Assembly (NCBI GenBank): GCA_045603485.1
Contig: JAZUMF010000005.1
Location: forward strand, 40,784 to 104,783
Length of the DNA stretch: 64,000 bases
Reading direction: 5' to 3'
Source: Kiritimatiellia bacterium
Lineage (GTDB): Bacteria > Verrucomicrobiota > Kiritimatiellia > RFP12 > JAAYLN01
A model generated the notes under the pieces. It had not been told where the DNA came from, made no database searches, and was given only the letters and a program-made list of their open reading frames with translations. The translations under genes and the position numbers were made by a program. Below, piece after piece: positions 44,552 to 64,000 of the stretch; position 1 is the stretch's first letter; each line of letters opens with the position of its first letter.

Positions 44552-45249
44552 CGATGGAGCATATCTTTTGCGGCTACGGCGATAGACCTGTACTCAATGA
44601 TGTCAGCCTTTCCGTTAATGAAGGTGAGGCTGTGCTGATCGCCGGGCCGAATGGCTGCGGAAAGTCTACGCTTTTGAAAGCTGTTTCAGGGGTGCTTAAG
44701 TTGTCTGCTGGCAATATCAAACTATCCGGAGAATCGCTCGCGGGACTTTCGGTCGAGCGGCGTATTCGATCGGGTATCGGTTATTTGCGCCAAAGCGATA
44801 ACATCTTTCCCGGTCAGACGGTCGAGGAGAATCTTGGGCTCGCCGGGATGATGCTTTCAAGAGCGATATATTTGTCCGCGAGAGATGAGATGTTGGAACT
44901 TTTCCCTTTTCTTAAAGCGAAACTTAACGATCGGGCAGGCTCATTATCTGGTGGGCAGCGTCAGGCACTCGCATTAGCGATGGTATTCCTAAGCCCTAAA
45001 AAGCTCTATCTTCTTGATGAGCCGACGGCAGGGCTTTCGCCTGCAGCCGCACAGGATATTATGGGTCGGGTACGTCAATTCGTGAAGGACGATGCGATGC
45101 GCTCGGTTCTTATGGTGGAGCATCGGCTTGATCTTTTGTCGTGGGTCGATCGTGCGGTCTTTCTTTCGCAGGGCAAGGTCAAATCCGAAATCGAGAATAT
45201 CGCGCTTCTTCAGGATGCCGAATGGCTCGCGAAGAATTATTTTGAGTAA
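44542..45249 (+). CDS. livF: Branched-chain amino acid ABC transporter ATPase LivF
   Basis: GPNGCGKST, LSGGQRQ, and LYLLDEP. Confidence 0.85.
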   Translation: MLLTMEHIFCGYGDRPVLNDVSLSVNEGEAVLIAGPNGCGKSTLLKAVSGVLKLSAGNIKLSGESLAGLSVERRIRSGIGYLRQSDNIFPGQTVEENLGLAGMMLSRAIYLSARDEMLELFPFLKAKLNDRAGSLSGGQRQALALAMVFLSPKKLYLLDEPTAGLSPAAAQDIMGRVRQFVKDDAMRSVLMVEHRLDLLSWVDRAVFLSQGKVKSEIENIALLQDAEWLAKNYFE

Positions 45250-45265
45250 AGTGGGAGAAGGCTGT

Positions 45266-47551: not shown

Positions 47552-48040
47552 ATGGATAAAATGGGTCAGGAACAGATAGTTGACGCAGTGCGCAACTGGC
47601 TTAAAGCTAACGACTGGTATTACGATTACAATGCCGAGAAGCATATGTTCAATATGAGCATCAGCCTCAAGAGCAAATTACAGTCAGGCAGGATATTCGT
47701 AGATGTCAAGGAAGACTGTTACGCGGTGTACATTTACGCGCCAATTAGGGGCAAGGACAATCTCGCCGAACTCACCAAGTACCTGACGATGGCCAACTAC
47801 GGCCTGCTCAACGGGAACTTCGAGCTGGACGTAGACGACGGCGAAATCCGCTACAAGACCTACGTGAATTGCGATGGGTTGCAGGAGCTCTCTTCAGCGG
47901 TTATCGAGGACAGCATTTACGTCGGCTGTGTTATGATGGATCGCTATGGCGACGGCATCGCCGCGCTTGCGCTTGGGTTCTCCGATGCCGACACGGAAAT
48001 CAAGAAGGCAGAAAAAAAGGACGAGTCTTCTGCTTCGTGA
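47552..48040 (+). CDS. YbjN-family protein (T3SS-chaperone-like putative sensory transduction regulator)
   Basis: A 162-aa acidic protein with the YbjN-like pattern: the DWYYDY region, then YAVYIYAP...LNGNFELD. Confidence 0.55.
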   Translation: MDKMGQEQIVDAVRNWLKANDWYYDYNAEKHMFNMSISLKSKLQSGRIFVDVKEDCYAVYIYAPIRGKDNLAELTKYLTMANYGLLNGNFELDVDDGEIRYKTYVNCDGLQELSSAVIEDSIYVGCVMMDRYGDGIAALALGFSDADTEIKKAEKKDESSAS

Positions 48041-48077: not shown

Positions 48078-49199
48078 ATGAAGATTAAGAAGAACCTGTT
48101 ACTGGTCGTTATCCCAACGGTCACTGTTTTGGCATTTGTCATATTTTTTGCATGCCGAAACAGACAACCAGCTTCTGCCGATAATGCTGTCCAAGTTGGT
48201 GTGATTCTGCCTTTGACGGGCTCGCTTGGATATGAAGGAACTCGTATGAAAGATGCGATGGACTTGGCATTGTCCCAATTAGATGGTGAAAAACAACAAT
48301 GTTTAAAACTCAATTACGAAGACGGGAAGTTTTTGGTTCGCGATTCCATATCGGCGTTCAACAAATTAAACGAGAAGGGGATGGATGCATGGGTCATTTT
48401 TGGTGATACGCCGTTGTTAGGCATGAAAACTTTACTTGAGAAGACTGGAAAACCAGTTTTGTGCCTCATTGGAGCTCAGGATCTAGTCAAAGATTCGCAA
48501 ACGTTCTTCCATTTTTCGGGATCTATAACGTTGCCGGCTATTGAGAATGCTAAGTTTGCCAAGCGCAAGGGCGTGAAGACGGTCTCTTTAATTTATTTAA
48601 ATGAACAGATTGGTTTGGAGGTGAAGGGTGCTTTTGAACGGGAGTTTATAGACGAAGCACATAAGGTAGTCGCGTCAGAGGGATTTGACATGGGGCAACG
48701 AGCAATGAAGAGTTTGGTTGCGAAAGCTATTGCGCCTAATCCTGACGCAGTATTTGTTTATGGATATGCGACTCCATATATTGAAATCTTAAACGAAATA
48801 AAAAATGTTGGCTACCGTGGAATTGTTTTGACAGATGGAAATCTTGCCGCTGTAAAACCCGATCTTATCGATGGTGGGGAGGGCGTTTGGTATGCAGATT
48901 TTGATTTTGGCGATGGATGTGAGAACCCAGAGACTAAAAAGTTTCTGCATGACATGCATGACATCTATGGGGAGACTGCGAGTTCCTTTTCCGCATTTGC
49001 CTATGAAACGGTACGTGTGCTGTCGACAATTATCCATGATAAGGGTAAAACCCCTGCCGATATTCATAGCGGATTGTTGGCAATTAAGGACTACCACTCT
49101 ATTTTTGGTGTGATATCGTATCGTGACAATAGGGAACTTGAAATCCCAGTAGTGATTAAAAAGGCAACACGGGATAGCGCACAAGTTGTTAATGATTAA
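48078..49199 (+). CDS. Leu/Ile/Val-binding-protein-like periplasmic binding protein (ABC substrate-binding or sensor PBP)
   Basis: N-terminal TM/signal anchor, then a type-I PBP fold pattern (VQVGVILPLTGSLGYEG...). It lies immediately upstream of the giant gene and is coupled to it. Confidence 0.75.
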   Translation: MKIKKNLLLVVIPTVTVLAFVIFFACRNRQPASADNAVQVGVILPLTGSLGYEGTRMKDAMDLALSQLDGEKQQCLKLNYEDGKFLVRDSISAFNKLNEKGMDAWVIFGDTPLLGMKTLLEKTGKPVLCLIGAQDLVKDSQTFFHFSGSITLPAIENAKFAKRKGVKTVSLIYLNEQIGLEVKGAFEREFIDEAHKVVASEGFDMGQRAMKSLVAKAIAPNPDAVFVYGYATPYIEILNEIKNVGYRGIVLTDGNLAAVKPDLIDGGEGVWYADFDFGDGCENPETKKFLHDMHDIYGETASSFSAFAYETVRVLSTIIHDKGKTPADIHSGLLAIKDYHSIFGVISYRDNRELEIPVVIKKATRDSAQVVND

Positions 49200-49212
49200 G
49201 GAGGCTCCGCTC

Positions 49213-52200
49213 ATGGATGCAGGACCGGATGCACAGCATGGTGTAAATACAGGCGTTGTGGAATCCAAATACTATGTGGATGTATGGTTGCCGGACGCTA
49301 AAGACTATCCGGGGTTGAGAGGAGCAAGTCCCAAAGTCCAAGAGGCATTGGGTCTAGGCCTTGGACTTCCAGATAAACCTACAGTTGTTCCACTTGGTGA
49401 AATAGAAATTAATCTTAAGCCTCGGTTCTATAAGCGAAACGAAAAGAATCTTGATATTGATAGTGAATCGGTCGCGGCCATTTCGTTTTCGGAAGATTTC
49501 GCGAAGCAGTGTAATTCCAATGATGTGGCCGTTCTTGCAATGATGGGTGGGGTTCTTCCTGCAGGGAAGAATTTCTTTAGAATGGGTTTTTCCGTTGAAA
49601 CTATTGCGGCCATCATTGGAGATCAGATTATTAATGATAATGACGGACGGGTGTCTCATGTTTTTTTGATTCGTGTGGATAATGATCTTGGAAATGAATT
49701 TGAACGAGCATTCTCAAGGGCGGTGAATGCCCCAAACCAAGGGCGTTCTTTGGATATACTCAAGATTGATGAGAACGGTACCCCCATTACTAAGAAGATA
49801 CAAATTACGCCGACGGACGAACAGGTGGCACGGAATACCTCAACGAATGAGGGTGTTATTAGTAAATGGTTGACTAGTTGTATTAAAAATCCGGAACACC
49901 CAAGAAATCAAGGCCTGAGATCTGTTGTCATATATGGATATTGGGAGCAATATTGGAATTTCGTAATAGAAGTATTAAGATGCAAAGCCTTTTGTAACGA
50001 CGAAGATTGGTTATATGTTGAGTCAAATTACCCGCTACATTATCCCTTTATTCTTTATGAAGCACGACATGTAGATGATTTAGATCAAGATGATTTGCAA
50101 AATTTTACTAAAGAACGCACTGATGATATTATTCCGAGATCGGTGGAAATTACGAGTTCGGGAAAAAATAATAAAAGGATAATGGGAGATAAAAAACAAG
50201 AGAAAACAGGAGGTGAAAGTCCAGAGAAACCGCCGGAGAGTGTGTTTCACCCTCAGAAGGGGAATTTGCAAAACAACAATGAAGACGAAAGGGATTTCAA
50301 TATATTTAATGAAAAGAAAATGGCTCATGCGAGTACGATAGCTCATGCGATCAAGAATAGGGATGAACCTGAAGAAGAGCATCAAAAAGAATCTAAGGAA
50401 CTCAGTCAAGAAAAGCTTATGCCGAGGGAACTTAAGCGAATTCGTTGTATAACGGGTAGACTCGTTAATGATGGTGAAAGTAGTTTCATTACATTTGCGA
50501 AGGAAACGGTTCGCCTGCTTCGTGCTGCTATTAGGGACGCTCATGAAAAAAAGGGAAAAGCGCAAGATCGGACCATCAAATCTATACGAGAATGCATATG
50601 CAAGTTTTTGGCAAATAGTAAGTTCTATGCAGCGGAACATCTAGGGTCTTTCTTTTTTCGAAAAGATGGTGAATTGTTTTTCCCTCTCTACCTCTATAAC
50701 GGAAAGCTTGAGCGACAAAGAATCGTCAGAGAGTCTTGTTGTAAGGGTGATGAATTCACAAAGGAGGCTATAGCCGATCAATTACTACAACTATCTAATT
50801 CTCTGAACAAGATAACGCGGGCTGAAATCCCCCGCAACCTTAAGGTAGGCAATTCGGATGGTGCTAAGAAGGTATTTGAGGAATTCAGTAAAATAATTGC
50901 TGACATCTCAAAGGGAATTGAGATTAAGTTTGTAAGCTATTATCCTAATACAGAGCACCTGTTCTATACATGGACAGATACGCAGGAGGGAAATGTTGAT
51001 AAGACGGAGCGATTTATCAATGTTAGCATTTTTGATGATGTTTGTAAAAAAATACAAGGTGTAATCCAGATTAACTTAAAAGATTTTGATTTGGAAGATA
51101 ACGATGCATATAGAGTATATTTGGTCTACGAGAGGACTGAAAAAGTTTTTGATGCATTAACTCTGGCGGAGTGGTGGAATACACAAAGCAATGATTGCCA
51201 GGCGACGATTATAGCTGGGAATAAAGGTTGGGAGAGATGTCTATTGCCTGTTAAGGCGGTTGTGTTTGCCAAATCAAGGATTGGGAAACAAGACGGTCAG
51301 ACGGATGAGGGTATGTCTGAAAACGAGTATAAAGATATTATAGACAATGCCAATTATGCACACTACTACCGCGACTGCGACGGCCATGAAAGCAAGTTCA
51401 AGTTTGATGAGATTTTAAGTGGTCTTTGTAAACTTCTTGGGTGTAGTGGAGACAACGGCAATTCAGAATCAGATGCCCGTTTTTTATATTATATTCCTGA
51501 ATATATTCCGGAAGACAACAAACCTGAAGGCAATAATAGTTACAAGATAGGTGGGCAAGGCGGAATCGTTATGGCGACTTGTTGCAAGTTGTCTTTGTTT
51601 GATTTGCAAATTGTTGAGAATATGGTCTCCCACATTTTTTCTAAGCTAAAAACATGTTTGGCAGAACATGATGTCCTCCTTTCAAATATAAAATCTGCCA
51701 TTGGCTCCATAATGTCTCGCAATGGTTCTCATAACATTGGTAGCCATGTATTGGCGGCACTGTCGCACAATGTGGGAACATTGCCGGATGATAGGGTGTT
51801 ATATCAGTATATTCAGCAGCGGATGGATTATATTGCAACGGTGACGACGGACTTTCCGACATGGACGCAACCGACAATGTTTGTAGCCGATATGATGAAA
51901 ACTTTTTTATCGCAGAGGCATTTATTAGATCATATTGTGGAGAGCGAAGGGTTGCATGCATTTCAGTTTCAAAATCCTAATATGACGGATGAGGAGTGGG
52001 CGGCTCAAGAAAACTGTGTAAAGATTTATGTTAGGAAGTTAGATGGTGATGGAAGTGTAAAGGACTTCATTGAATATGAAAAGGGTAAACGAGAACTTCC
52101 CATTGATTTGACTAATGATGTTGATTTAGCAATTCCCGGGGGAATAATTGGTGAACATGCGTTCTATACGATTCTTGAAAATATAATTCGGAATGCCGCG

Positions 52201-54687
52201 AAACATTCTTGGGCGAAGATTAAACAATGGCAAATAAGGCAAAACGAAATTGAGTTGCAGTATAATAATTTGGAGCTTTTCATTGATTTTGAAGAAAAGG
52301 ATGATGAGGTTAAGTATAACGTTTATGCAAAGTTGCCGATGGCTCAGGTAGTTGTGGAAAAATCTAAAGCTGACAATAAATTATGTCAGAAGGTGATTGC
52401 TTCAGAACAACTGATTAAATGGAAGGAAAAGTTTGATGATATGGGTGTAGTGAAAGCAAAGGAGGAAAATGCTTTTAAGGAGCTGCCAGATTATGAACAG
52501 GAACAGGTCAAACTACATTTGGCTAATCTCAAAGACGATCCACTTAAAAAATGGGTAGATAGATATGACAAACAAGGCGGATTGACATCTGATGAGCAGA
52601 AGGAGTTTGATTCATTGGCGATTCATCATAAGCAACAAGTTATGTTGGCGAGGCCTTTTATTGATTCGCAGGGAGCACTTCGTCGTGAGAATTGGGGTAT
52701 GGCAGAAATGAAGATATCGGCAGGATATCTCGCTGGCGAATCTATTGAGGCGATAGGGGGTATTGGAGACAAAAAAGGAAGTAATGAAATTATAACGCCA
52801 CGCATCAAATCAGAAAAGGTCAAGAGGAAATGTATAGAATCAGGGGAAAAAGTAACAGAAATTGAGGTCGAAGAACTATATTTAGGCTATGAATTTTCTA
52901 TTGCCAAACCCAAGGAAATATTGATTATAGTTGCGGAGGAGCTGAATAGGGAAGGAAAAGACGATGAATGGGGTAGTGAAAATATTCGTAATGAATTAAA
53001 AAAGCATGGGATTTTTGTTAAGACAGTTAGCGAGATAAAACAGGAGAACCGTCTTAATTACAGGTATGTAGTTCATTATAATGCACGTGAGTTGTTTGAT
53101 AAAAATTATCATGTTAAAGATGATGTTTTATTGCCGTTTAGAGTGTTAAGTGTGGCGGATATTGAGGATGAAAGGCTTAAAGATTTTATTCCGACAATAG
53201 ATATAAGTAAACTAAAAGAGTGTTTCGAGAAGGGCACTGAAGATCCGAAAAACGGAATTCAAAAACTTGTCTACGATACTTATCTTAAACATTTTTTGTC
53301 ACAACGGAGTGTAGATAATATTGGTCTTTTGGTTGCGATAAATGAAAATGAGAAATCTGGCGGAAATAGTTTGATTTCGGATGCGGATATTCTTGAATTG
53401 ATGCTTGAGCAGAATTTTGCTGTGTGCGTAGCTCAATACAAGGAATTTGCAGCTAACGAAGATAAGATTATTAAGTGTTTAGAATCGATTCGTCATAAAA
53501 GTAGTGCTAAAGATACAGTAATAAAGTTTAAGCACTTCTCAAATAAGACGATAAGGGAATTGATTGCACAACGTATGTGCGATTGGGCTGGAAAGTCTAA
53601 TGATTCATGGATTCCAATAGTTGAACATTTGCGTAAAAAGTATTTCGTATCAGATGCTGAGAGCGAAACTTCCAATGAGCTTAAGCCAAGTAATAATGAA
53701 ATATCAGTTGATTTTGCAGCAAGTGTAAATTCTCTGTCGCAAAAACATCCGATTGATGATTTTATCCGTTATGTGGAATCGATTTTTGAAAATACAAAGA
53801 AACTGTTTAAACAGTATGAAGAGCAGATTGTGACGTTGCCGGCAGGGTATAAGGTTCAATCTTCTGATGTTGGAGAAGGGGCGTCGCTTATAGACGGGAT
53901 TAAGATTATTACATCAGCAGAGAAAGAAGAACTTGAAAAAGAAAAAGATCGCCACTGGATTGGGTATCGCCGTCATGCTCATACGCTACCTGTTGATGAT
54001 TCCAAGAGACTTTATGTTGAGCCGTTAAGCGGAACTCAGACATACTTGTCACAATTGGCGAGAGTAAAAACCGATCTTGGATTGCAAATGCGTCTTATAG
54101 AAAATGGCCTTATGCGTATTCTTGTTCTTGATGAACGAGTTGCGAAGTTCCTTCGTGAGCATCAAAAGGAAGTTGGCCCGCATTATAAGTCGATGAATAT
54201 CCATGTCATTGATCACGAATGGGTTGTTGCTGGTGGAGAAACTCCTCCTGAGGGTTTTTACGGAAAGTTTACTTCTGTGCACAAAGAAGCGTTGAAATCA
54301 TTTGTAAAACCGAAAGATTCTAATGATGGTGAGAATAACCAAAATGGGAATGCCGATGTGAGCTCGAATTCGAACCTTACTATGTTTGATGATGTTGACA
54401 TCTTAATCGTTCATCAGGGGATTCTGGATAAATGGTACCCTGAATTCAAAAATCGTAAGGATATGTGGAAGTTATTGGAAGGGTTCAAGAAATTAGTGAA
54501 ATATGTTGTCGTGACTACTGGTCGAGGGACTCCGGAGAACATACCTGAAGAGACTCATCTGTTGCCGTTCGCCGTCGTTGAATCTACACTCTTTAAGAAA
54601 TATCCAGAGAAGTTGATCTTAACAGATACTATCATGAATGTCCTTCCTGTTGGGAAGAAGAACGACAACTCTGGAGGCCAAAAATGA
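49213..54687 (+). CDS. Giant (1824 aa) cytoplasmic protein with a histidine-kinase-type GHKL ATPase N-box and a degenerate receiver-like C-terminus; AT-rich
   Basis: ATG 49213 lies 10 nt after AAGGAGG, which overlaps the PBP stop. N-box-like LENIIRNAAKHS at about 52176-52210. An upstream H-rich motif SRNGSHNIGSHVLAALSH at about 51712-51765. C-terminus RILVLDERV...DILIVHQGILD...YVVVTTGRG. No Walker A and no TM helices found. The nucleotide composition is visibly AT-rich compared with the flanks. Confidence 0.6.
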   Translation: MDAGPDAQHGVNTGVVESKYYVDVWLPDAKDYPGLRGASPKVQEALGLGLGLPDKPTVVPLGEIEINLKPRFYKRNEKNLDIDSESVAAISFSEDFAKQCNSNDVAVLAMMGGVLPAGKNFFRMGFSVETIAAIIGDQIINDNDGRVSHVFLIRVDNDLGNEFERAFSRAVNAPNQGRSLDILKIDENGTPITKKIQITPTDEQVARNTSTNEGVISKWLTSCIKNPEHPRNQGLRSVVIYGYWEQYWNFVIEVLRCKAFCNDEDWLYVESNYPLHYPFILYEARHVDDLDQDDLQNFTKERTDDIIPRSVEITSSGKNNKRIMGDKKQEKTGGESPEKPPESVFHPQKGNLQNNNEDERDFNIFNEKKMAHASTIAHAIKNRDEPEEEHQKESKELSQEKLMPRELKRIRCITGRLVNDGESSFITFAKETVRLLRAAIRDAHEKKGKAQDRTIKSIRECICKFLANSKFYAAEHLGSFFFRKDGELFFPLYLYNGKLERQRIVRESCCKGDEFTKEAIADQLLQLSNSLNKITRAEIPRNLKVGNSDGAKKVFEEFSKIIADISKGIEIKFVSYYPNTEHLFYTWTDTQEGNVDKTERFINVSIFDDVCKKIQGVIQINLKDFDLEDNDAYRVYLVYERTEKVFDALTLAEWWNTQSNDCQATIIAGNKGWERCLLPVKAVVFAKSRIGKQDGQTDEGMSENEYKDIIDNANYAHYYRDCDGHESKFKFDEILSGLCKLLGCSGDNGNSESDARFLYYIPEYIPEDNKPEGNNSYKIGGQGGIVMATCCKLSLFDLQIVENMVSHIFSKLKTCLAEHDVLLSNIKSAIGSIMSRNGSHNIGSHVLAALSHNVGTLPDDRVLYQYIQQRMDYIATVTTDFPTWTQPTMFVADMMKTFLSQRHLLDHIVESEGLHAFQFQNPNMTDEEWAAQENCVKIYVRKLDGDGSVKDFIEYEKGKRELPIDLTNDVDLAIPGGIIGEHAFYTILENIIRNAAKHSWAKIKQWQIRQNEIELQYNNLELFIDFEEKDDEVKYNVYAKLPMAQVVVEKSKADNKLCQKVIASEQLIKWKEKFDDMGVVKAKEENAFKELPDYEQEQVKLHLANLKDDPLKKWVDRYDKQGGLTSDEQKEFDSLAIHHKQQVMLARPFIDSQGALRRENWGMAEMKISAGYLAGESIEAIGGIGDKKGSNEIITPRIKSEKVKRKCIESGEKVTEIEVEELYLGYEFSIAKPKEILIIVAEELNREGKDDEWGSENIRNELKKHGIFVKTVSEIKQENRLNYRYVVHYNARELFDKNYHVKDDVLLPFRVLSVADIEDERLKDFIPTIDISKLKECFEKGTEDPKNGIQKLVYDTYLKHFLSQRSVDNIGLLVAINENEKSGGNSLISDADILELMLEQNFAVCVAQYKEFAANEDKIIKCLESIRHKSSAKDTVIKFKHFSNKTIRELIAQRMCDWAGKSNDSWIPIVEHLRKKYFVSDAESETSNELKPSNNEISVDFAASVNSLSQKHPIDDFIRYVESIFENTKKLFKQYEEQIVTLPAGYKVQSSDVGEGASLIDGIKIITSAEKEELEKEKDRHWIGYRRHAHTLPVDDSKRLYVEPLSGTQTYLSQLARVKTDLGLQMRLIENGLMRILVLDERVAKFLREHQKEVGPHYKSMNIHVIDHEWVVAGGETPPEGFYGKFTSVHKEALKSFVKPKDSNDGENNQNGNADVSSNSNLTMFDDVDILIVHQGILDKWYPEFKNRKDMWKLLEGFKKLVKYVVVTTGRGTPENIPEETHLLPFAVVESTLFKKYPEKLILTDTIMNVLPVGKKNDNSGGQK

Positions 54688-55280
54688 AATATTATGTCTT
54701 TATCGCAAGAGACGAGGAAGAGTTTTCGCGCTATCCTCAAAGTGGGTTTCAGGAGCTGAAGAGGGATTTTGCAAAAACGATTCGCCATAAGGAGATGGGA
54801 GACTCATATTTATTGATTATATCAAGCGATGTGAAGCCTAAGAATGCAGAATCGGATGAAGATGTTAAGATGATGTGTTTTAAGGTTGCAGCTGCGATAA
54901 AGTTAGTAAATACAAATTACGATTATGCAGCAGGTAATGATTGTGTGCATATTTTTGTTCATGTGGGTGGAGAAGGTAGTTGTGGCTTAGGGAAAATGGA
55001 GGAAAGTCTAAAAAAGAAGGTTGGAGAAATAAAGGAAAATTGGAAAGTTTTTCTTTTAAGTTCAAGCTGGCGCTGGAGAATTGATGTCAAGCAGTCTATG
55101 ATTAGATTGCCTAATAGAGAAGGGGAACTTGATGTTCTTGTAAAGCGGTGCGAGATGGACATTGCCGCTGAGATTTTAAAAGGATTTAAGGCTCGTTATA
55201 GTACTACTGAGAAAAAAGATTGCTATGATAAAATCTGTGAAAAGCTTTCCATTGTTAAGATTGAGGAGAAGAGAAAATGA
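54684..55280 (+). CDS. Small hypothetical protein (198 aa), possibly a degenerate receiver/flavodoxin-like fold
   Basis: ATGA overlap with the upstream and downstream genes. Alternating beta-alpha pattern: YYVFIARDEE, YLLIISSD, VHIFVHVGG. No recognisable catalytic motif. Confidence 0.45.
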   Translation: MKYYVFIARDEEEFSRYPQSGFQELKRDFAKTIRHKEMGDSYLLIISSDVKPKNAESDEDVKMMCFKVAAAIKLVNTNYDYAAGNDCVHIFVHVGGEGSCGLGKMEESLKKKVGEIKENWKVFLLSSSWRWRIDVKQSMIRLPNREGELDVLVKRCEMDIAAEILKGFKARYSTTEKKDCYDKICEKLSIVKIEEKRK

Positions 55281-58200
55281 GCAATGGCAGAAAATTAAAT
55301 CTTTTTATTTTTGACTTGGCACAGCATGGAGAACTGACAAACCTAGTACTGTGGCAAGTAGCTAAGATGTTTGAGATGAGGTGTGGTATCTGTGTTGCTT
55401 CTTATTCATGGTGTGCGCCTTTAAAGAAAGAGAAATTTATTCCTCTATTTCTTTGCAATTCGTATGATGAGATTAGGGCGCATGGTTTTAATGTGCCAAG
55501 AGAATTTGTCTTTGAGGTTGGATTGAATCCTAATCCTAATTATATTGATGATCCAGATAATCAACCAGAGATGTTGTGTGAGATCTTAGGGGATAAGATA
55601 GAAGATCGGTTAAGTCTGTATAAGGAGTTAGAAATAGGTGTAAGTTTTGAGGATGTTAAAGACTGGTGTGTCGGTGCGTTTCGTAGATATTTGTTTATGG
55701 ATGATGATGTTCACGGAACATCGGGGACTTTTTCTATTTCGGAATTAATGAAATGCAACAAAGAAACAGGCTTGAATGTTGATGATAAATATTGGCAAAA
55801 ATGGTTTGGGGAATTCGGTGATGACAAAAATAAATTTAACAGAGAGATGTTGCGGGCTAGATTCGGAGTTGGCGTGAAAAATTCAAGTGACAGTACAACG
55901 CAAAATCCAAAGGAAGATGATCCGCTCAGAAATTATAAGGATGTATTGTCGGTTGTGTTTGAGGAAGAATTTAGGTGCATAAAAGCAGACGTTATTGAGA
56001 ATCCGGGCGAAAGCTATCAAAGAGTAAAAGATTTTTTTGAGAAGAAGTTTCCAAGTCAGCAAGGTCTTGCATTAAAATTTATTTCTCCATGCGGAAAGAT
56101 ACGTGTACTTGTTGTAGATGATAATGCTACAGCCGAAGTTGAAAGTCTTAAAAGTAAAGAATCGTTGTCTAATATTTTTGATTTTGCTCCGTTGGATTTG
56201 AAGAAGCGAGATGATGAATCTTCGAATCAGTTTATAAAAAGATCCATAGGCGAGATAAAAAATAAATCTAAGGAATGTGTTGATGTAATTTTATTAGATC
56301 TAAGCTTAGGCGAGGCGACAGGTTCTGATTTGACTGGCTATCATCTGATTAAGAGATTTAAGCAATGGATGCCGACGGCCTATATCATTATTTATTCTGA
56401 ACATGAGGATATGGGGCATATTGTTCGTGCGTTCAGAGAGGGTGCCGATTGGTTTTTGAAAAAGAGCGAAGCTCAAGAAAAACTTGCGCGTCATTTTATT
56501 TCGTTGATGGCGAATCGCAAATGGAGAAAAGAATTCGGCGTCATCAGACCGAAATATGTTCTTGATATAAAAGGCAAGGATGAAAATTTTATCGCCAAAT
56601 TCAATGTAAAAGAGGTATGGCAATATTTGACAATAAAAAGTCTGGAATTATTGCCGGGACATTATATCAAGATAAATAAGATGGGGGGCGGTATCAGTTC
56701 GGCTGTCACATTCCGAGCGCAGAAAGGCATTACAAGAGATACTGAAGATAATCAGGCGCCCGTAATCATCAAGATAGATTCTGTTTTTAATACGAGGATG
56801 GAATATGAGCGTTATTTCCGCTTCATTCGACCGTATATTGCCAATGAGTCGGGGCGGATAGAGAAGCGTGAAATAGTTCTCAATAGGGATAGCGCCGCGA
56901 TTGTTTATACATTTACAGGGCGGCGAGATGCTGCACATGAACTTAACACCTTGGACGAACTGCTGCGCCGCGATATGTTATCGCGTGAAACTTGCGATTA
57001 TGAAAAATATCGCAAGATGTTTAATGCGCTGTTTGATGAGATCACAGCGCGTCTGCACAGGGTGACTCCAGTCGCAGAATTCAGGGATTTAAAGACAGAT
57101 CCGGAAGAGTTGTCGGAGTTTTCTGATTATCCCAATCGCACATTTGGAGAATTGGAGAGTGATTCTATATCATCCTCCGATCAAGGTCATAAATCTTGGT
57201 TTTTCTCGAATTTTACATATAGAATGCCGATAGAGAGTGTTGCTGAAAAGTTTATAATAAGTGAAGGCTCAAGCAATCCGAATGAGGTATATGAAGTTTA
57301 TGGTATCCAGAAGGATGACTTAGGTAAGAATTCCGCTAAATACCCTTATACTTATGTTATTGAATGTCAGCGATATAAGATTAAAACTGAAAATGATAAT
57401 AAAGAGTTGCATCAAAAGGTGTTGCTGAAAGGCGATTTAGCGTCATATTACGCCCGTTTTAGGACACATCTTTGGCCGGGAATGTTGCTGTCGATAAAAC
57501 TGGGGGAAGGTCAAACATTAAATGAGAACGAACTTATGTCTTGGTGCTTTTGTTTCTGCGCCAATAAGAATTTATATCAAATCCGCGCTGAAAAGACAGA
57601 AGATGGCTCTAAACAAGAGGGATGTTTCCGGATATCTAAAAAGCTTTATAATAAGATGGCCGGATGGTTTAAGGATAAAGAAAACCGATACTTAATAACA
57701 GTTCGTGACGCGCTGAAAAAACTTGTCGATGAGGAGCCGCACAGATTTGTGTGTCCGGTTGGTATTGTGCACGGCGATTTAAATCTTAAGAACATTATGA
57801 TTGAATCCCGGGTCAATCCACCGAAAGAAATTCAAGCAGACATAACGAAGGTTTTGTCTGATGTGTGGCTTATAGACTTTGCTCGGACGCGGCGAGATGT
57901 CGTAGCACATGATTTCAATGTCGCTTTTACATCAGTACTTCCGTTGCTCTTTCAGCCGGATCTCGTTGGGACGCATGAGAAGGGTAAACCGTTTGAGCAG
58001 AATGATGAGCAGAAGAAATACGTCGAAGAATTAGATGAAAAACTTGAACCGTATTTGCGCCATGTTCTCTTTGACAAGTATGATACTTTGTCGGATTTGT
58101 TTGCGGAAGATCAGCGACTTGTTTTCATGTACAAGATATTAAGAAGAATCCGTAAAGCGGCACTTGCGACGGGGATGTCGGAGGATATGTATCTACTGAC

Positions 58201-58354
58201 GACAGCACTGACATGTTTGTATTCGTTTAAACTGTATTTAAAACAAGGAATGCCGGAAGCCGCAACAGCACTTGTAATGGCGGGATTGCTTTGCGTGGAG
58301 AAGTTGAATCCGCCAGATGACTGTTTCGAAGCATCTAATCAGAAAACATTATGA
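55277..58354 (+). CDS. Receiver (REC) domain fused to a eukaryotic-like Ser/Thr protein-kinase-like domain (1025 aa)
   Basis: REC: VLVVDDN (56101-56127), VILLDLSL, IIIYSEHED, DWFLKKS. Kinase: G-loop KMGGGISSAV, beta3 VIIKI, catalytic loop HGDLNLKNIMI (57769-57803), and DFG-like LIDFARTR. Confidence 0.7.
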   Translation: MSNGRKLNLFIFDLAQHGELTNLVLWQVAKMFEMRCGICVASYSWCAPLKKEKFIPLFLCNSYDEIRAHGFNVPREFVFEVGLNPNPNYIDDPDNQPEMLCEILGDKIEDRLSLYKELEIGVSFEDVKDWCVGAFRRYLFMDDDVHGTSGTFSISELMKCNKETGLNVDDKYWQKWFGEFGDDKNKFNREMLRARFGVGVKNSSDSTTQNPKEDDPLRNYKDVLSVVFEEEFRCIKADVIENPGESYQRVKDFFEKKFPSQQGLALKFISPCGKIRVLVVDDNATAEVESLKSKESLSNIFDFAPLDLKKRDDESSNQFIKRSIGEIKNKSKECVDVILLDLSLGEATGSDLTGYHLIKRFKQWMPTAYIIIYSEHEDMGHIVRAFREGADWFLKKSEAQEKLARHFISLMANRKWRKEFGVIRPKYVLDIKGKDENFIAKFNVKEVWQYLTIKSLELLPGHYIKINKMGGGISSAVTFRAQKGITRDTEDNQAPVIIKIDSVFNTRMEYERYFRFIRPYIANESGRIEKREIVLNRDSAAIVYTFTGRRDAAHELNTLDELLRRDMLSRETCDYEKYRKMFNALFDEITARLHRVTPVAEFRDLKTDPEELSEFSDYPNRTFGELESDSISSSDQGHKSWFFSNFTYRMPIESVAEKFIISEGSSNPNEVYEVYGIQKDDLGKNSAKYPYTYVIECQRYKIKTENDNKELHQKVLLKGDLASYYARFRTHLWPGMLLSIKLGEGQTLNENELMSWCFCFCANKNLYQIRAEKTEDGSKQEGCFRISKKLYNKMAGWFKDKENRYLITVRDALKKLVDEEPHRFVCPVGIVHGDLNLKNIMIESRVNPPKEIQADITKVLSDVWLIDFARTRRDVVAHDFNVAFTSVLPLLFQPDLVGTHEKGKPFEQNDEQKKYVEELDEKLEPYLRHVLFDKYDTLSDLFAEDQRLVFMYKILRRIRKAALATGMSEDMYLLTTALTCLYSFKLYLKQGMPEAATALVMAGLLCVEKLNPPDDCFEASNQKTL

Positions 58355-59031
58355 CACCTAAACGCATAATCCTTGTTCGCCACGGTGAATCGGAGGCGAA
58401 TGTCGATCCGACGGTGTATGCCCGCGTGCCGGATTGGCGGATTGCACTTACAGCAACTGGTGTTGAGCAGGCTCGGGATGCTGGGCGGAAGATTGCGGGA
58501 TTGATTGGCGGCGAGTCGTTCGGGGTGTTCAGCTCGCCGTATGTGCGAACGGAACAGACCAAGGACGCGATGCTGGAGGGAATGGGGCGCGAGCCGGTGT
58601 TTGACTACCAAGATCCAACTTTGCGCGAACAGGAATACGGCAACATGCCGCCGACAGATGAGAACAATGCGAACCGTGAGTTCCGCAAGAAGTTCGGCTA
58701 CTTTTTCTACCGTTTCCCGAACGGTGAATCGTGCGCCGATGTCTCGGATCGTATCACGCTCTTCCTTGACTCCCTCTATCGCCGGTTTGAGCGCGACACG
58801 TGTCCCGAGAACATCATCATCGTTTCCCACGGCACGGCTATCAAGTGCTTCCTTGCTAGATGGTATCATTGGTCGATTGCAAAGTTTGATACCATTCCCC
58901 AGTTGCCAAACTGCCATGTTAGTGTGATGAGACGAATTGATGGGGATGTGCAACGCGCTTCTTCGCAGTTTGAATTGCATGAACCATTTGAAACAGTATG
59001 CTGTTTCTCAATGAAAGGTAAAGAACAATGA
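58351..59031 (+). CDS. Histidine phosphatase superfamily (PGM/SixA branch) protein
   Basis: N-terminal RIILVRHGESEANV (RHG catalytic motif) and a downstream SHG. ATGA overlap with the kinase gene. GC-rich, like the host. Confidence 0.75.
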   Translation: MTPKRIILVRHGESEANVDPTVYARVPDWRIALTATGVEQARDAGRKIAGLIGGESFGVFSSPYVRTEQTKDAMLEGMGREPVFDYQDPTLREQEYGNMPPTDENNANREFRKKFGYFFYRFPNGESCADVSDRITLFLDSLYRRFERDTCPENIIIVSHGTAIKCFLARWYHWSIAKFDTIPQLPNCHVSVMRRIDGDVQRASSQFELHEPFETVCCFSMKGKEQ

Positions 59032-60935
59032 CAATTGTTCAAGATCAGTTTGACGCATCGTCCTTCCAAGTTCCGCCGAAAGTCGGGAAGTCTGGAATGT
59101 TGGGCGACCTGTCGGGTGCCCTGCAGGTGTTAAACCGTGTTGCGTTTAGCATTGGATGGATACTGTTGGCCATAGCGGCTCCGCTTGCATGGGGCTTCTT
59201 GCCGTTTGGTTATGAGAAACTTAAGGAGAGCGCCGAAATCAGCGCGGTGCCATCGCTGACAGTGTGTATGCGAATGACTTTCGCTGCTTTATTCTCGCTT
59301 GCTGTGCTTGCCGTCTGGGTGGCTATAGGCAAGGCTGTGTATCGTGGGTGTGACGGAGACGTGCCTTGGTTTAAGAAGATGTTACGAGAAACGCGGGAAG
59401 CCTTAAAGCGTCATTGGCGGCCACTCCTTGCGTTGCCGGTTCTTTATGTTGTCGCGCGCATATTGGAAATGGAATTGTTGTTGAACGCATCGCGGATTGG
59501 GGTGGAAGGACCATTCGGCGGCGCATTGGAGCAATACGGATATTTTCTGGGATTGCTTTTGATAATACTTTTGCCTACGGCCAGATTGCGTAATTTTTCC
59601 ATCGTGGATATGCTTGTGTGGACAGTTACTGTGGTTATGGTTTTCGCTAGCGCAGTTCTGAATCTGACTGCTCGCGTCCATGTTGCCCACTGGAATTCTG
59701 TTTACATAATGACCGTCATGGCGTTTGCCGTGGCTGTGATAGGGCTTTTCTCTGCACTTGTAAAGACGGCAAGTGGCTTTGCGGCGGAGTTCTCGGAAGA
59801 TGTCAGCAAACATCGTTTTGCTCCAGCCATATTTGCCAGCATGGTCGTGAACATGGTAATGGCTGCAGGGGCGGCTGTGTTGTCTATTCTGTATCTGATT
59901 GTCTATTTTGCTGCAAAGGGCTGGAAGTGGATGTCGTATGGCGATAAGATCAAATATTCGATGAGCGATGCATTGCCCGCATATTTCTCAGATGGAAAAT
60001 GGTTCTGGTTTTTGATTGTAATTGTTGTTGTGGGATCGTTGGTTGCGCCGATTTGCCAGTTGGCGGGTGTAGCGCTACACGATGCGGCAATAAGGAATCG
60101 CAAATTATCGAAATATGGCATATCTGGCAGGGACTGGCTGATAGTGTGTGGCGGATTTGAGCCTATGTTTGTGGTCCTGATCGGCATTTGTTCTGGTGCA
60201 ACATTCATAAGCAATTTCTCGATAGCGCTCTCGTTTGGCCTTGTGCTTGCGATTGGCTTGCTCAGGGTCGTGAAGGTGTGGAGTGCGAAGAATACAGTCC
60301 TCAGGAATGGTATCTTTACCCATATTCGTGGCAGTTCAAGAGGCCCTGATTCGACCATGTCTGAGGATGATTTGCTTCTGCGCGCGGAAAAACTAGCTCT
60401 CCTGAAATTCTATGACAAGCGCCGCGAATTTAGGGGAACAAGGTTGGGTGTGTGGCCCAAACCCGCTTTGCTGCGTGATCTTATCGACAGGCATGATGCG
60501 GTTAAGGATTTCTTATCTGCTGCTACAACGCAGGAAGTTCTATGTGGGAGAGAGCCTTTTTATACGCCGCTTATAGGCGGTGAAGTCTTCTTCACGCAGG
60601 ACGATCCTTTCACTCATGATGTTCTCTCTGCCCAATTCGCTTGGCTCAAACGGCGGCATCCGGATGTTGATGTGACGTCCTTCAGCTATTTGCTAAAGCG
60701 TTTTTGCAGTGAATCCGCTGGATGGAATGGCAAGTTGGGGTTGAAGAGCCTGGCTTGTGCTGGCGAACCGAATGCAACGCCATATATAATCATCCCGAGA
60801 AACCTGAAGGCGGCGACGGGCTTTTGTAGTGACTGGAACAAACTCCTTGCAGTCCTTCATGGAATCGTTGACAGAGAGGAAATACCTCAATATGTCAACG
60901 CCTTGATGTTGGATGCAAAGAACATTGATGACTGA
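59028..60935 (+). CDS. Polytopic membrane protein (about 8 TM) with a 300-aa C-terminal cytoplasmic domain of unknown function
   Basis: Hydrophobic helices throughout the first 330 aa. ATGA overlap with the phosphatase gene. Confidence 0.5.
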   Translation: MTIVQDQFDASSFQVPPKVGKSGMLGDLSGALQVLNRVAFSIGWILLAIAAPLAWGFLPFGYEKLKESAEISAVPSLTVCMRMTFAALFSLAVLAVWVAIGKAVYRGCDGDVPWFKKMLRETREALKRHWRPLLALPVLYVVARILEMELLLNASRIGVEGPFGGALEQYGYFLGLLLIILLPTARLRNFSIVDMLVWTVTVVMVFASAVLNLTARVHVAHWNSVYIMTVMAFAVAVIGLFSALVKTASGFAAEFSEDVSKHRFAPAIFASMVVNMVMAAGAAVLSILYLIVYFAAKGWKWMSYGDKIKYSMSDALPAYFSDGKWFWFLIVIVVVGSLVAPICQLAGVALHDAAIRNRKLSKYGISGRDWLIVCGGFEPMFVVLIGICSGATFISNFSIALSFGLVLAIGLLRVVKVWSAKNTVLRNGIFTHIRGSSRGPDSTMSEDDLLLRAEKLALLKFYDKRREFRGTRLGVWPKPALLRDLIDRHDAVKDFLSAATTQEVLCGREPFYTPLIGGEVFFTQDDPFTHDVLSAQFAWLKRRHPDVDVTSFSYLLKRFCSESAGWNGKLGLKSLACAGEPNATPYIIIPRNLKAATGFCSDWNKLLAVLHGIVDREEIPQYVNALMLDAKNIDD

Positions 60936-60954
60936 CGGCGCAAGGAGTGTTATC

Positions 60955-62436
60955 ATGCGATTCTCATGGATTAAGATTTTTTTCACGCCGTTGAGGGGGA
61001 TTAAGAACCTCTTTGGGCTGCTTACGACGTGCCTGTTTTGTCAGCAGACGCTTACGCTGCTTTTTCTGATGTTTTCCATCTGGACTCTAGGTGCTGCATA
61101 TGCCTTCTTTTATCTTCACGATCCGAATTGGGGTCAATGGAGTTTTGTGCATCTTTTTGATTTGACAGAGACACGTCGAACGCTTAATGAGTCATCTGGA
61201 GTCGGGAAAGCGGTCGCCGTTCTGCTATATGGCGTGACATGGCTTATTGGTGGCGGCATCCTGTTGGGCGTTATTGTGGACAGAAGTGCGCGTTTCATGT
61301 CAACGGTAAGAGATGGCCATGTCCGTTATCGTCGTGCATTGCGCGATCATTTTGTGATATTGGGATGGGAGCCAAATGTAGTATCCCTTTTGCGCAACCT
61401 TTCTGGAGGTGGTCGACTGCTATCTTTTTTTTCGTTGCGCGCTTTGTTCCGGCCGAGGATTGTCATCTTGTCAGAATGCCCTGCGGTGGAAATTCACCAG
61501 CAGATAGCAGAGGCATTTGGCCGCAGTTTCTTTAAGGTACTTCCTTTTGGGCTGATTGTGTACAATGGGGCTTATGATGCGAAAGACGAGTTCAAGATGC
61601 TGGTTTTGCGCTATGCGCGCAAGATATATGTGACAGGAGAGGAACCAGAGGCCTCGCATGATTCAAGAGTGTTGCTGTTCCTTGCAAGCCTTGAGGCTTT
61701 TTTGGGGAAATATAAACCGAGACAGCGTATTAACTGCCATGTTCGCATTGCTTCTTATTCGCTTTTCAGGCTTTTGGTGTTGTCGATAAACAAGGGATCG
61801 CCCGTTGGCAATCATAAGTACGAGTATCTGACCGTCCGCTTTTTCAACTTCTACGAGAATTGGGCCAAACGACTATTCTCGGAAAACCCTGCGAATGGTC
61901 GTGCATATCCATCAGTGGTGTTTAGACCTGACGATGGTCAGAGCCGTGTTCGTGTTGTTGTCGTAGGGTTTGGCAAAATGGGGCAGGCGTTGATTGTGGA
62001 GATCCTTCGTTCCCATCCGCAAAGGAAAGGACGAATGATTGACATTGTGGTTGTTGATCCCGATGTAAATGTTCTCCGAAAGCAGTTCATGATGTCGCAT
62101 AGTGACATAGCGACGGGCGAGTACATGAAGCACGCGACTCTTAGATTTGCCAAGGCGATGCGAGTGGAGGATGCCGCATTTCGCAACATGATCAAGCGTT
62201 TCGAGGCGGAAGGAGACCAAATTACTGTCATGTTGACATACAACAGCCCTGACGATGTAGTCGTGAGGGCGGTTGCGCTTGCCTCCAAATATAAATCTGC
62301 CAATATCTTTGCTCGGCTAAACATCGCCGTACCAGATGTGGACAAGTGCAGAGATGTTGTTGCAGAAAGCTACAATTTGAACCGGCTTTACCTGTATGGA
62401 TTTAAGGATGGTGCTGGGTTTGGGAAGGAGATTTAG
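60955..62436 (+). CDS. Membrane-anchored protein with two TrkA-N/RCK-like Rossmann domains
   Basis: Two N-terminal TM helices, then HFVILGWEPNVV and later VRVVVVGFGKMGQALIVEIL...IDIVVVDPD, both glycine-rich beta-alpha-beta NAD(P)-binding-like motifs. The ATG at 60955 follows AGGAG; the ORF track start at 60913 overlaps the previous gene. Confidence 0.5.
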   Translation: MRFSWIKIFFTPLRGIKNLFGLLTTCLFCQQTLTLLFLMFSIWTLGAAYAFFYLHDPNWGQWSFVHLFDLTETRRTLNESSGVGKAVAVLLYGVTWLIGGGILLGVIVDRSARFMSTVRDGHVRYRRALRDHFVILGWEPNVVSLLRNLSGGGRLLSFFSLRALFRPRIVILSECPAVEIHQQIAEAFGRSFFKVLPFGLIVYNGAYDAKDEFKMLVLRYARKIYVTGEEPEASHDSRVLLFLASLEAFLGKYKPRQRINCHVRIASYSLFRLLVLSINKGSPVGNHKYEYLTVRFFNFYENWAKRLFSENPANGRAYPSVVFRPDDGQSRVRVVVVGFGKMGQALIVEILRSHPQRKGRMIDIVVVDPDVNVLRKQFMMSHSDIATGEYMKHATLRFAKAMRVEDAAFRNMIKRFEAEGDQITVMLTYNSPDDVVVRAVALASKYKSANIFARLNIAVPDVDKCRDVVAESYNLNRLYLYGFKDGAGFGKEI

Positions 62437-62437
62437 G

Positions 62438-63094
62438 ATGCAAAAGCTTGAAGAGCGTGTTGAAAAAATACGAAATCCTATGACATCCCGACTAAGGGAG
62501 TTTGCCGATGCCATGGGGCGGGAACTTGCGGAAGCGTGTAGCATTCCTGGCGCACATTATATCCTTGGCGGGGCGTTAGGGTATAACGCGTCTTTGGTGG
62601 GAAACTATGATATTGACTTGCGATTGTTGATTCCCAACGCGGGGAAGAGCCATGAGGAAGTGCGGCGGCAGATTGACGCGGTGAAGGACTTGCTGGCGGC
62701 GCGGGCGAAGGACGATCCAACATTCAAGATAAAGTTCATCGATGAGGGCGGAACGAACTACATCTGGCACACGAAACAGATCGTGAAGGTTCCGGGCATC
62801 CCTGGCAATCCAGATGTTGAGTTGACGTGGAACATCCAAGCAGAAAGTACGTACAAGAGTATCGCCGAGATGGCGGCGCGTCTGCCGAAGAGGGTAATCG
62901 ACCGCTATGTTGTCGAGAAGTGGAACGCGCAGCAGGCAGGCAAGGAGGCTTACAAAGCCCTCAAGGGCGAATGGAAGGGGATGATCAACCGTTTGATCGA
63001 TAAAGGCGCTCGAAAGATGGATGATGAGTCCTTGCGTGAGTTGCTGGATTCAGTAGCCAGTCAATATTCAAAGTTTTTGAAAGAAAGGAAATGA
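62438..63094 (+). CDS. Minimal nucleotidyltransferase (Pol-beta superfamily) with helical C-terminal domain
   Basis: LGGALGYNASLVGNYDIDLRLLIP fits the G[GS]x(9-13)DxD nucleotidyltransferase signature (62564-62633). ATG 62438 lies 2 nt after the previous stop, with an RBS (GGAAGGAG). Confidence 0.55.
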   Translation: MQKLEERVEKIRNPMTSRLREFADAMGRELAEACSIPGAHYILGGALGYNASLVGNYDIDLRLLIPNAGKSHEEVRRQIDAVKDLLAARAKDDPTFKIKFIDEGGTNYIWHTKQIVKVPGIPGNPDVELTWNIQAESTYKSIAEMAARLPKRVIDRYVVEKWNAQQAGKEAYKALKGEWKGMINRLIDKGARKMDDESLRELLDSVASQYSKFLKERK

Positions 63095-63174: not shown

Positions 63175-63705
63175 ATGAAAAAGACAATTGACCGAATCTT
63201 GTTGTTTGTACTCGGAACGCTGGCAGGGCCCGCAGTCTCGTCGTTCTTCCCTGCCTACACCGCTTTTTTCGAGCGCCATCCATGGTGGGGGATTGGTTCT
63301 GTGCTTTTGCTTGTACTTGGTTTGTTTTGGTATTGGAGAACGGCCGAAAAGCAGGATCAGAGAGACATCAAGACTGTTGTTGAGGATGTGAAAAATATTT
63401 TACATTTGCCGGGGCGTTGTTTAACAGAAACGAATGTGTCGCGAATCGAAGGTGCCCCAAGTTTGATGACTTTATTAAATAGTAAAGTCGGAGTTACAAG
63501 TCGTGTGATGAACAAGAGACAAAGAATCGACTTGCCGGAGTCATCATGTGTATTACAGGTTTCGTTTATTCCTATTGATAAAAACGGAAATACAATCCTC
63601 TGGAAACGGATGCCAAAAAATCATGTGTTTAGAAGTGGGGGATGGTTCTATCTTGATTTCATTCTCGCCGTATGCGCGCAAGTTTGCAGATGTGTTTGTC
63701 TTTGA
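63175..63705 (+). CDS. Small membrane protein (2 TM) with soluble C-terminal domain
   Basis: Coordinates from the ORF track. Hydrophobic helices ILLFVLGTLAGPAV and WWGIGSVLLLVLGLFWYW. Confidence 0.4.
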   Translation: MKKTIDRILLFVLGTLAGPAVSSFFPAYTAFFERHPWWGIGSVLLLVLGLFWYWRTAEKQDQRDIKTVVEDVKNILHLPGRCLTETNVSRIEGAPSLMTLLNSKVGVTSRVMNKRQRIDLPESSCVLQVSFIPIDKNGNTILWKRMPKNHVFRSGGWFYLDFILAVCAQVCRCVCL

Positions 63706-63736
63706 CAGAAAGGATATTGGGGTTAGAGATAGAGGT

Positions 63737-64000
63737 ATGCTTAGTTCGTTGGGAATTACATGTGTGGGATTGCGAGATATCTACTCCAGAGAGGTTCCAA
63801 ATGTTTCTATGGGCGACATTGTCCCAGTTGGGGCTTATTGGTTACCGAGGCAAAAAGATTCTCATGGCTGTTGCAGGGCACCAGCGTACTGCTTTTGGGT
63901 TTTTGCTGTGAAATATGATGTAGATTTTAATGATAAAGATGTCGTGGACGCTATTTTTGGCCGTAAACTTGATAATGGTAAGACCGTTTATCTGAAAAAA
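63737..64000 (+). CDS. Hypothetical protein, 5' partial (runs off the window end)
   Basis: The open frame from ATG 63737 continues to the window edge. No recognisable motifs. Confidence 0.25.
   Translation, partial: MLSSLGITCVGLRDIYSREVPNVSMGDIVPVGAYWLPRQKDSHGCCRAPAYCFWVFAVKYDVDFNDKDVVDAIFGRKLDNGKTVYLKK

Follow-up and report, generated by a model that had tools for sequence, protein, structure and literature searches.

Here we report a nucleotidyltransferase (NTase)-like gene at the end of a conserved operon in a 64,000-nucleotide stretch of DNA from a Kiritimatiellia bacterium (contig JAZUMF010000005.1; the whole stretch is referred to below as the window), together with the membrane protein to which it is linked. 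The 218-aa product is in the Pol-beta NTase fold and in no curated family, and an RCK-gated channel homologue is its obligate neighbour or, in natural fusions, has it as C-terminal domain. We assign a probability of roughly 0.45 to the reading that the protein is a Mg-NTP-binding NTase module (NTP, nucleoside triphosphate) and the dedicated partner of the tandem-RCK channel homologue at the output end of the operon, that is, an enzyme coupled to a channel.

Fold of the protein and linkage to a channel homologue

The open reading frame (ORF) proposed in an earlier note on this DNA was borne out, and an AGGAG lies 7 nt 5' of its ATG. The nucleotidyltransferase signature that the note had recognized also stood, since the superfamily pattern hG[GS]x9-13Dh[DE]h has a single match (nt 62564) when all 64 kb of the window are translated in six frames (127,996 residues). 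Its core (residues 44-61 are GGALGYNASLVGNYDIDL) had been described as GS-x-DxD; the DxD part holds, with D58 and D60 invariant, but the GS part does not, because the window protein reads GGA where most relatives have GGS. The gene had further been called stand-alone, which has to be given up: its ATG is 1 nt past the TAG of the upstream channel gene, it belongs to a run of same-strand ORFs, and in relatives it is fused to the upstream channel protein. No hydrophobic or transmembrane (TM) segment was found in the 218-aa protein by TM-segment prediction, and the protein is predicted to be cytosolic.

Structure prediction, which the earlier note had suggested as a check, gave a model that matches nucleotidyltransferases of the Pol-beta fold. 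The AlphaFold2 (AF2) model, built from a 35-sequence alignment, had a predicted local distance difference test score (pLDDT) of 94.6 and a predicted TM-score (pTM) of 0.87. Its N-terminal part consists of a helix (residues 16-33), a strand (40-44), the G44-G45 turn and a strand (58-65) with D58 and D60. The C-terminal part consists of a helix (72-89), a beta meander (97-101, 109-117 and 126-135) and helices over residues 142-214 (about 75 residues), and thus replaces the approximately 110 aa of helices that had been supposed to follow the motif. The model contains the alpha/beta/alpha palm of the Pol-beta superfamily with the strand-turn-helix that carries hG[GS], and the [DE]h[DE]h carboxylates are present as D58-I-D60-L, which is invariant in all full-length homologues and aligns with the DxD of CdnD and of the CCA-adding enzyme.

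In a Foldseek search against the PDB, OAS1 was the best match (E 4e-7), followed by Cid1, GLD-2, NF90 and CdnC, with a TM-score of about 0.47. A profile of the wider NTase family (alignment A2) matched only nucleotidyltransferases among the PDB sequences, all of them aligned on GGS...DxD (CdnD, E 0.023; archaeal CCA-adding enzyme, E 0.054; also OAS2 and CdnC). Of the 26 family members, 12 have an NTP_transf_2 (PF01909) match at E ≤ 0.1; one distant member, P0146, scores 28.7 bits, above the gathering threshold of 21 bits. Because of these matches of the model, of the A2 profile and of the relatives, the nucleotidyltransferase fold of the 218-aa protein is well supported. The window protein has no NTP_transf_2 match of its own, which makes its link to PF01909 transitive only, and it had no significant match in Pfam, NCBIfam, PADLOC, PHROGs or, by phmmer, the PDB.

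GrpB was the top structural match of the NTase model and is, as judged from that model, its nearest structural relative, with the palms of OAS, of the cGAS/DncV-like nucleotidyltransferases (CD-NTases) and of the terminal uridylyltransferases (TUTases) as looser likenesses. GrpB/UPF0157 (PDB 2nrk; also the GrpB-type domain of mycobacterial CoaE, 6n39) has a compact NTase fold, as does the protein described here. Its genomic partners are different, and neither the window protein nor its 26 relatives match Pfam GrpB (PF04229). We know of no function for GrpB, and the likeness therefore gives no mechanism.

The 507-aa product of the gene upstream has the 2-TM pore fold and the RCK domains of RCK/KTN channels. 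Its inner helix carries an invariant TWLIGGG, and in the fingerprint of RCK2 (G352-x-G354-x-x-G357 plus D382) G352, G357 and D382 never vary, and at least 90% of the sequences keep G354. With the nucleotide-regulated RCK/KTN channels GsuK, KtrA/TrkA, MthK and CASTOR (the comparison also listed BK and Slo2.2) it shares the 2-TM pore, the tandem RCK domains and the intact GxGxxG...D fingerprint. It differs from them in that the 507-aa protein has no TVGYG K+ selectivity filter, the stretch between pore helix and inner helix (NESSGVGK) being variable, and no matched solved RCK channel carries a nucleotidyltransferase domain.

Nine further contexts (eight loci and L021) extend far enough to include the gene before the NTase, and each of them has a homologue of this channel immediately upstream of the NTase or fused to it; two divergent channel homologues among the eight loci were confirmed by hhalign (E 1e-27 and 1e-28). 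P0106 is a natural channel-NTase fusion (39% identity over 503 aa), further fusions are P0124, P0163, P0165, P0171 and P0113, and the metagenome-assembled genome (MAG) RGIG2266 encodes a fusion of 840 aa (locus L012). The NTase forms the C-terminus of the channel in these fusions.

Other domains occur in the vicinity of the channel homologues. P0172, P0173 and P0174 have a C-terminal RyR-like domain (the Pfam RyR match is significant for P0174 only; the others were recognized by eye), L021 (positions 1-1146) encodes a channel with an RyR-like C-terminal domain followed by a separate NTase gene, and a separate 80-aa RyR-domain gene lies downstream at L003 (12717-12959).

Active-site residues in two clades

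The NTase family falls into two clades, which were defined and compared site by site in a hidden Markov model (HMM) alignment of all retrieved homologues. Both clades keep residues N13, G44, G45, D58, D60, P150, K161, Y172 and K176 essentially without variation, and G44, G45, D58 and D60 are invariant in every full-length homologue tabulated. Clade I, which includes the window protein and is channel-linked in every context that could be examined, has the signature H111, Thr or Ser at column 130, N132, Q134 and W179. Clade II has the invariant residues in common with it (N13, GGS, DxD, P150, K161, Y172 and K176) but has Glu or Asp at column 130, lacks H111, N132 and Q134, and is linked to Csx3 or a helicase instead of a channel; its NTase domains are fused to a helix-turn-helix (HTH)/P-loop region plus Csx3, to a P-loop domain or to a DEAH helicase. 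Column 130 is Thr or Ser in nearly all of the channel-linked clade, and H111, Asn132 and Gln134 co-vary with Thr at this column. D102-E103 is invariant in the closest subclade only.

The third carboxylate of the Pol-beta superfamily (h[DE]h, in the strand beside the DxD strand) was not found in the window protein by alignment and topology. Column 130 is in strand beta5, 70 residues past D60; in OAS1 the corresponding strand, the third past the helix, carries the third catalytic Asp (D148) at a distance of 71 residues from D77. Because of the family alignment and the strand position, with a spacing like that of OAS1, the canonical third carboxylate is probably represented by Thr130 in the window protein. 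The third catalytic residue could not be aligned to that of a solved NTase, since the comparisons of the A2 profile with the PDB and of the protein with SMODS (hhalign) cover GS-DxD only. The earlier note had named a missing third acidic residue as grounds for withdrawing its call; this applies in part, as alignment and topology place Thr130 in that column and the D102-E103 pair offers an alternative in the closest subclade only.

GG, DxD and the Lys, Tyr and Lys residues are strictly conserved and a new His/Asn/Gln set is conserved beside them, which speaks for a nucleotide site that has been remodelled and is under selection, and against a decayed one. K161, Y172 and K176 may contact the NTP phosphates or the base.

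Operon, relatives and genomic surroundings

The NTase gene closes a run of abutting or overlapping same-strand ORFs that extends from position 48078 to 63094 (Table 1). Wherever the contig reaches, the order is conserved as giant protein, REC + TCAD9 protein, optional His_Phos_1 protein, polytopic membrane protein, channel and NTase, and the Peripla_BP_6 gene is first both in the window operon and in L016. The REC + TCAD9 protein is kept in every locus that extends upstream to that gene; TCAD9 is a protein-kinase-like family whose name comes from vWA-MoxR-VMAP conflict systems. The polytopic membrane protein had no Pfam match and is fused to the channel in L001.

Table 1. Positions of the NTase-like gene, its conserved sites and the other operon genes in the window
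Feature	Position	Strand	Basis
NTase-like gene, 218 aa	62438..63094	+	ORF call, AF2 model, fold matches
Gene junction: AGGAG ribosome-binding site (62426-62430) within the end of the channel gene; channel TAG at 62434-62436	62426..62436	+	
Motif LGGALGYNASLVGNYDIDL, residues 43-61: G44-G45 turn and D58-x-D60 metal-binding strand	62564..62620	+	
D102-E103 (beta3-beta4 turn) through H111 (beta4; conserved in the channel-linked clade)	62741..62770	+	
Strand beta5, T130-W-N132-I-Q134; N132 and Q134 are clade-specific invariants, T130 is in the Glu/Asp column of the sister clade	62825..62839	+	
C-terminal helices with K161, Y172 and K176, invariant or nearly so family-wide	62918..62965	+	
Channel homologue, 507 aa: 2-TM pore and tandem RCK/KTN domains	60913..62436	+	
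Polytopic membrane protein, 635 aa, about 9-10 hydrophobic segments	59028..60935	+	
Histidine phosphatase (PGAM-like, His_Phos_1), optional operon part	58351..59031	+	E 2.6e-30
REC + TCAD9 kinase-like protein, 1025 aa	55277..58354	+	TCAD9 2.9e-20, Response_reg 7.6e-9
198-aa protein, fold not recognised; weak homologue in L016	54684..55280	+	
Giant protein, about 1833 aa, no recognisable domain	49186..54687	+	
Exported periplasmic binding protein (Peripla_BP_6), signal/lipobox-like N-terminus, operon 5' end	48078..49199	+	

The giant protein measures about 1,200-1,800 aa across loci and is most conserved in its region 830-1040 (window 51600-52400), with its SHNIGSH and ENIIRNAAKH strings. The sequences there, IMSRNGSHNIGSHVLAALSH and, some 150 residues later, FYTILENIIRNAAKHSW, resemble an H-box and a GHKL N-box by eye only, and the REC-domain gene is located two genes downstream, past the 198-aa ORF. 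An identity as histidine kinase or GHKL protein was rejected, as there was no match in Pfam, in the PDB by phmmer, or in the PDB with a three-sequence profile.

The gene that follows the NTase varies by locus and encodes a Lon_C protease, transglutaminases, TPR proteins or a small membrane protein. In L007-L009 the gene immediately after the NTase is the one for the Lon_C protease, and an approximately 985-aa FtsH-like AAA+/Peptidase_M41 protein is encoded within 3-6 kb of the NTase, on either strand, in L001, L003 and L012; the system may have a loose link to membrane or ATP-dependent proteases. In the window, the downstream region (63175-64000) contains a 176-aa ORF with an N-terminal hydrophobic segment, which is not conserved in related loci and overlaps a second frame still open at the window end (ISFSPYARKFADVFVFDRKD...); the two frames are either overlapping genes or parts of a single gene that is frameshifted near 63640.

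A scan of the operon found internal promoter-like sites at the level of shuffled sequence and weak internal terminator-like sites modestly above that level, with none in the spacer past the NTase gene. The G + C content is about 37-43% over 48-58 kb (binding-protein, giant and REC-TCAD9 genes), versus about 50% nearby, and returns to about 47-49% in the phosphatase, membrane, channel and NTase genes. This pattern suggests that the operon is composite or horizontally acquired. The window as such is chromosomal, carrying genes for PBP2, RNase G, MetRS, Mfd, T2SS-F and ABC-F. The genes for a Schlafen AlbA_2/HATPase_c_4/winged-HTH protein (45092-46702) and a YbjN-like protein (47552-48040) separate the operon from a Liv-type ABC transporter (42005-45249) and may mark the boundary of the island.

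The 15-kb operon occurs only in Kiritimatiellae of the rumen and gut, and the NTase family is small. A word-indexed search yielded 105 clusters, all unnamed or hypothetical and one labelled Kiritimatiellae, and just 49 of 1.84 billion representatives, searched exhaustively, matched the profile at E ≤ 0.001. The A1 scan of 185,579 species genomes recovered four loci, all from Kiritimatiellae/Kiritimatiellia MAGs of goat gut or rumen, and searching a third time, with the A2 profile, left the close set essentially unchanged. P0130, P0144 and P0148 were discarded as false positives, being long repetitive proteins that match via short repeats such as LRLYDIDLREL. No phage relatives were found, as there was no PHROG match and no tblastn match in 50,697 phage records, and a phage origin was rejected on these negatives.

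The NTase domains of clade II were retrieved at profile E-values of 1e-5 to 1e-15. Some carry a fused Csx3 domain, which belongs to a family of cyclic-oligoadenylate phosphodiesterases. The one clade II context examined (L014; GCA_043798355.1, JAZDOT010000010.1) is located among defence-type genes and has no called channel gene; in it, P0135 (HTH, P-loop, Csx3 and NTase) adjoins a DEAD-box helicase of 1263 aa and another Csx3 gene. The same island encodes a Fic protein, a serine recombinase, a SMODS CD-NTase, a LexA-like repressor and an Eco57I-type methyltransferase, and the locus looks like an uncharacterised Csx3-NTase-helicase defence module. In L019 and L020, P0120, a clade I NTase of 231 aa, overlaps the start of a gene for a HAD-family phosphatase by 4 nt (translational coupling).

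Proposed function and rival explanations

In the mechanism that we propose, the NTase, a separate subunit in some relatives and the C-terminal domain of the channel in others, would bind NTP via G44-G45, D58/D60, K161, Y172 and K176 and would then either make an adenylate-containing ligand or transfer a nucleotidyl group. The target would be the GxGxxG...D dinucleotide pocket of the channel RCK2 or the gating ring itself, and upstream phospho-signalling would thereby be coupled to ion flux. Because the third carboxylate is represented by Thr130 in this clade, the chemistry would be non-canonical (involving H111, N132, Q134 and possibly D102/E103) or reduced to nucleotide sensing. The NTase may accordingly make, attach or sense a nucleotide ligand that controls the channel. 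What the data show is the fold, the conservation of the motif, the linkage of the genes, the fusions, the channel fold of the partner and a place at the end of an operon with many phospho-signalling parts; catalysis, product and gating are inferred. Since hydrolases recur in the family (Csx3 in clade II, the HAD phosphatase beside P0120, His_Phos_1 in the window operon), one line of evidence leans towards a nucleotide product that is turned over.

Several points weigh against an enzyme coupled to a channel. The Thr/Ser at the canonical third acidic position across the clade could mean that transferase activity was lost, and the conservation of D102/E103 does not extend beyond the closest subclade. 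In some channel relatives the C-terminal place of the NTase is taken by an RyR-like, non-enzymatic domain, which fits a purely regulatory NTase equally well. Even the channel function of the 507-aa protein is deduced from its fold, because the pore is without the K+ selectivity filter. A synthase tethered to its own receptor would also be unusual, as second-messenger systems normally amplify their signal by diffusion.

Two of these points, the missing third carboxylate and the RyR-like domain, lean towards a rival reading, in which the transfer chemistry has been lost and the NTase is a pseudo-enzyme sensor, a Mg-NTP- or nucleotide-binding regulatory domain of the channel akin to other NTase-fold proteins that bind nucleotides but are inactive. 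Such a sensor would agree with Thr/Ser at column 130 in the channel-linked clade versus Glu/Asp in the sister clade, with the RyR-like domain that can take the same place, and with the presence of NF90/NF45, which are inactive NTase folds, among the structural matches. We nevertheless consider it somewhat unlikely, given that GG, DxD, K161, Y172 and K176 are invariant and the new H111/N132/Q134 set gives the site a remodelled and not a decayed appearance, and given that the Csx3, HAD and His_Phos_1 hydrolases that accompany the relatives suggest turnover of a product. Modification in the manner of an AMPylase, with the RCK ring, the REC-kinase or a metabolite as acceptor in place of the synthesis of a diffusible ligand, appears rather improbable: an acceptor was not identified, the GrpB fold again offers no known function as a guide, and there was no sequence-level match to NTases of the GrpB, aminoglycoside or AbiEii types.

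An RNA 3'-end tailing or RNA-sensing enzyme of the TUTase or OAS kind, adjacent to the channel by chance, would explain why OAS1, Cid1 and GLD-2 lead the Foldseek matches and why members of the sister clade are fused to, or located beside, DEAD/DEAH helicases and Csx3. The adjacency is not incidental, however, because it recurs in 9/9 further contexts and in several independent fusions. The TM-scores reach only about 0.47, and the larger C-terminal domains of OAS1, Cid1 and GLD-2 are absent. Compared with Cid1, GLD-2 and TUT7, the protein also lacks the PAP-associated domain and the RNA-binding modules, and the carboxylate needed for 3'-OH activation is missing in its clade, which makes an RNA enzyme very improbable. 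Membership in a known defence system, as a minimal nucleotidyltransferase (MNT)-type antitoxin or a cyclase of the cyclic-oligonucleotide-based antiphage signalling system (CBASS) type, is effectively refuted by the membership tests. In its favour are the GG...DxD motif, the low G + C content of the upstream operon half (about 48-58 kb, though not 58-64 kb) and a weak match of the NTase to the NCBIfam model CBASS_cyclase_a, which at E 0.069 and 12.2 bits is far under the cut-off of 200 bits. Against it, PADLOC was empty for all six operon proteins tested, the NTase had no SMODS, CD_NTase_C or PADLOC match, and hhalign with a genuine SMODS protein aligned the GS-DxD stretch only (probability 0.5%); CBASS and other catalogued defence systems were rejected on these grounds. 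The protein is also about 100-150 residues shorter than OAS1 and the CD-NTases and differs from them in the Thr at the third carboxylate. CD-NTases have a separate effector and a diffusing signal, but the NTase described here has an RCK channel as partner and is often fused to it. No SAVED, STING or other known effector was found, and phage relatives are lacking.

The earlier note had already judged the protein too long for an MNT antitoxin and found no HEPN partner nearby. Both observations agree with our results: 218 aa with a helical C-terminal domain is unlike the approximately 100-140-aa MNTs, no HEPN family was detected in any neighbour and the Rx4-6H regex matches are trivial. A HEPN/MNT toxin-antitoxin pair was rejected, as the neighbours, without a HEPN match in Pfam, are the channel and membrane proteins. 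With the vWA-MoxR-VMAP ternary system, likewise rejected, the operon has only TCAD9 in common, and no vWA or MoxR domain was found in the operon or in the other window ORFs scanned, which were not all ORFs of the window.

For the operon as a whole, the exported binding protein favours environmental signalling over anti-phage defence, and the variable downstream cargo and the low G + C content of the upstream part are compatible with a mobile conflict system. We tentatively put forward, as a possibility that we ourselves hold doubtful, that an NTase remodelled by a Thr and a His/Asn/Gln set in place of the third carboxylate, and tethered to an RCK channel, opens the pore by means of a nucleotide which it makes, attaches or senses, and so unites signal synthase and receptor in one membrane effector, which would be driven by the exported binding protein, the giant kinase-like protein and the REC-TCAD9 kinase and would constitute a signalling or defence module not described before.

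Literature searches gave no description of the NTase-RCK channel pairing or of the operon. Nucleotide-gated RCK channels and signalling nucleotidyltransferases are each well studied, but their coupling as adjacent, often fused modules is undescribed in the literature found. The clade split, with the canonical triad accompanied by Csx3 or a helicase versus Thr130, His111, Asn132 and Gln134 accompanied by a channel, is a natural experiment on the repurposing of an NTase active site. The NTase-channel pair provides a first functional handle on a 15-kb operon of almost entirely unannotated proteins, and if the NTase feeds or reads the dinucleotide pocket of the channel, it would represent a new wiring of a nucleotide signal directly to membrane conductance.
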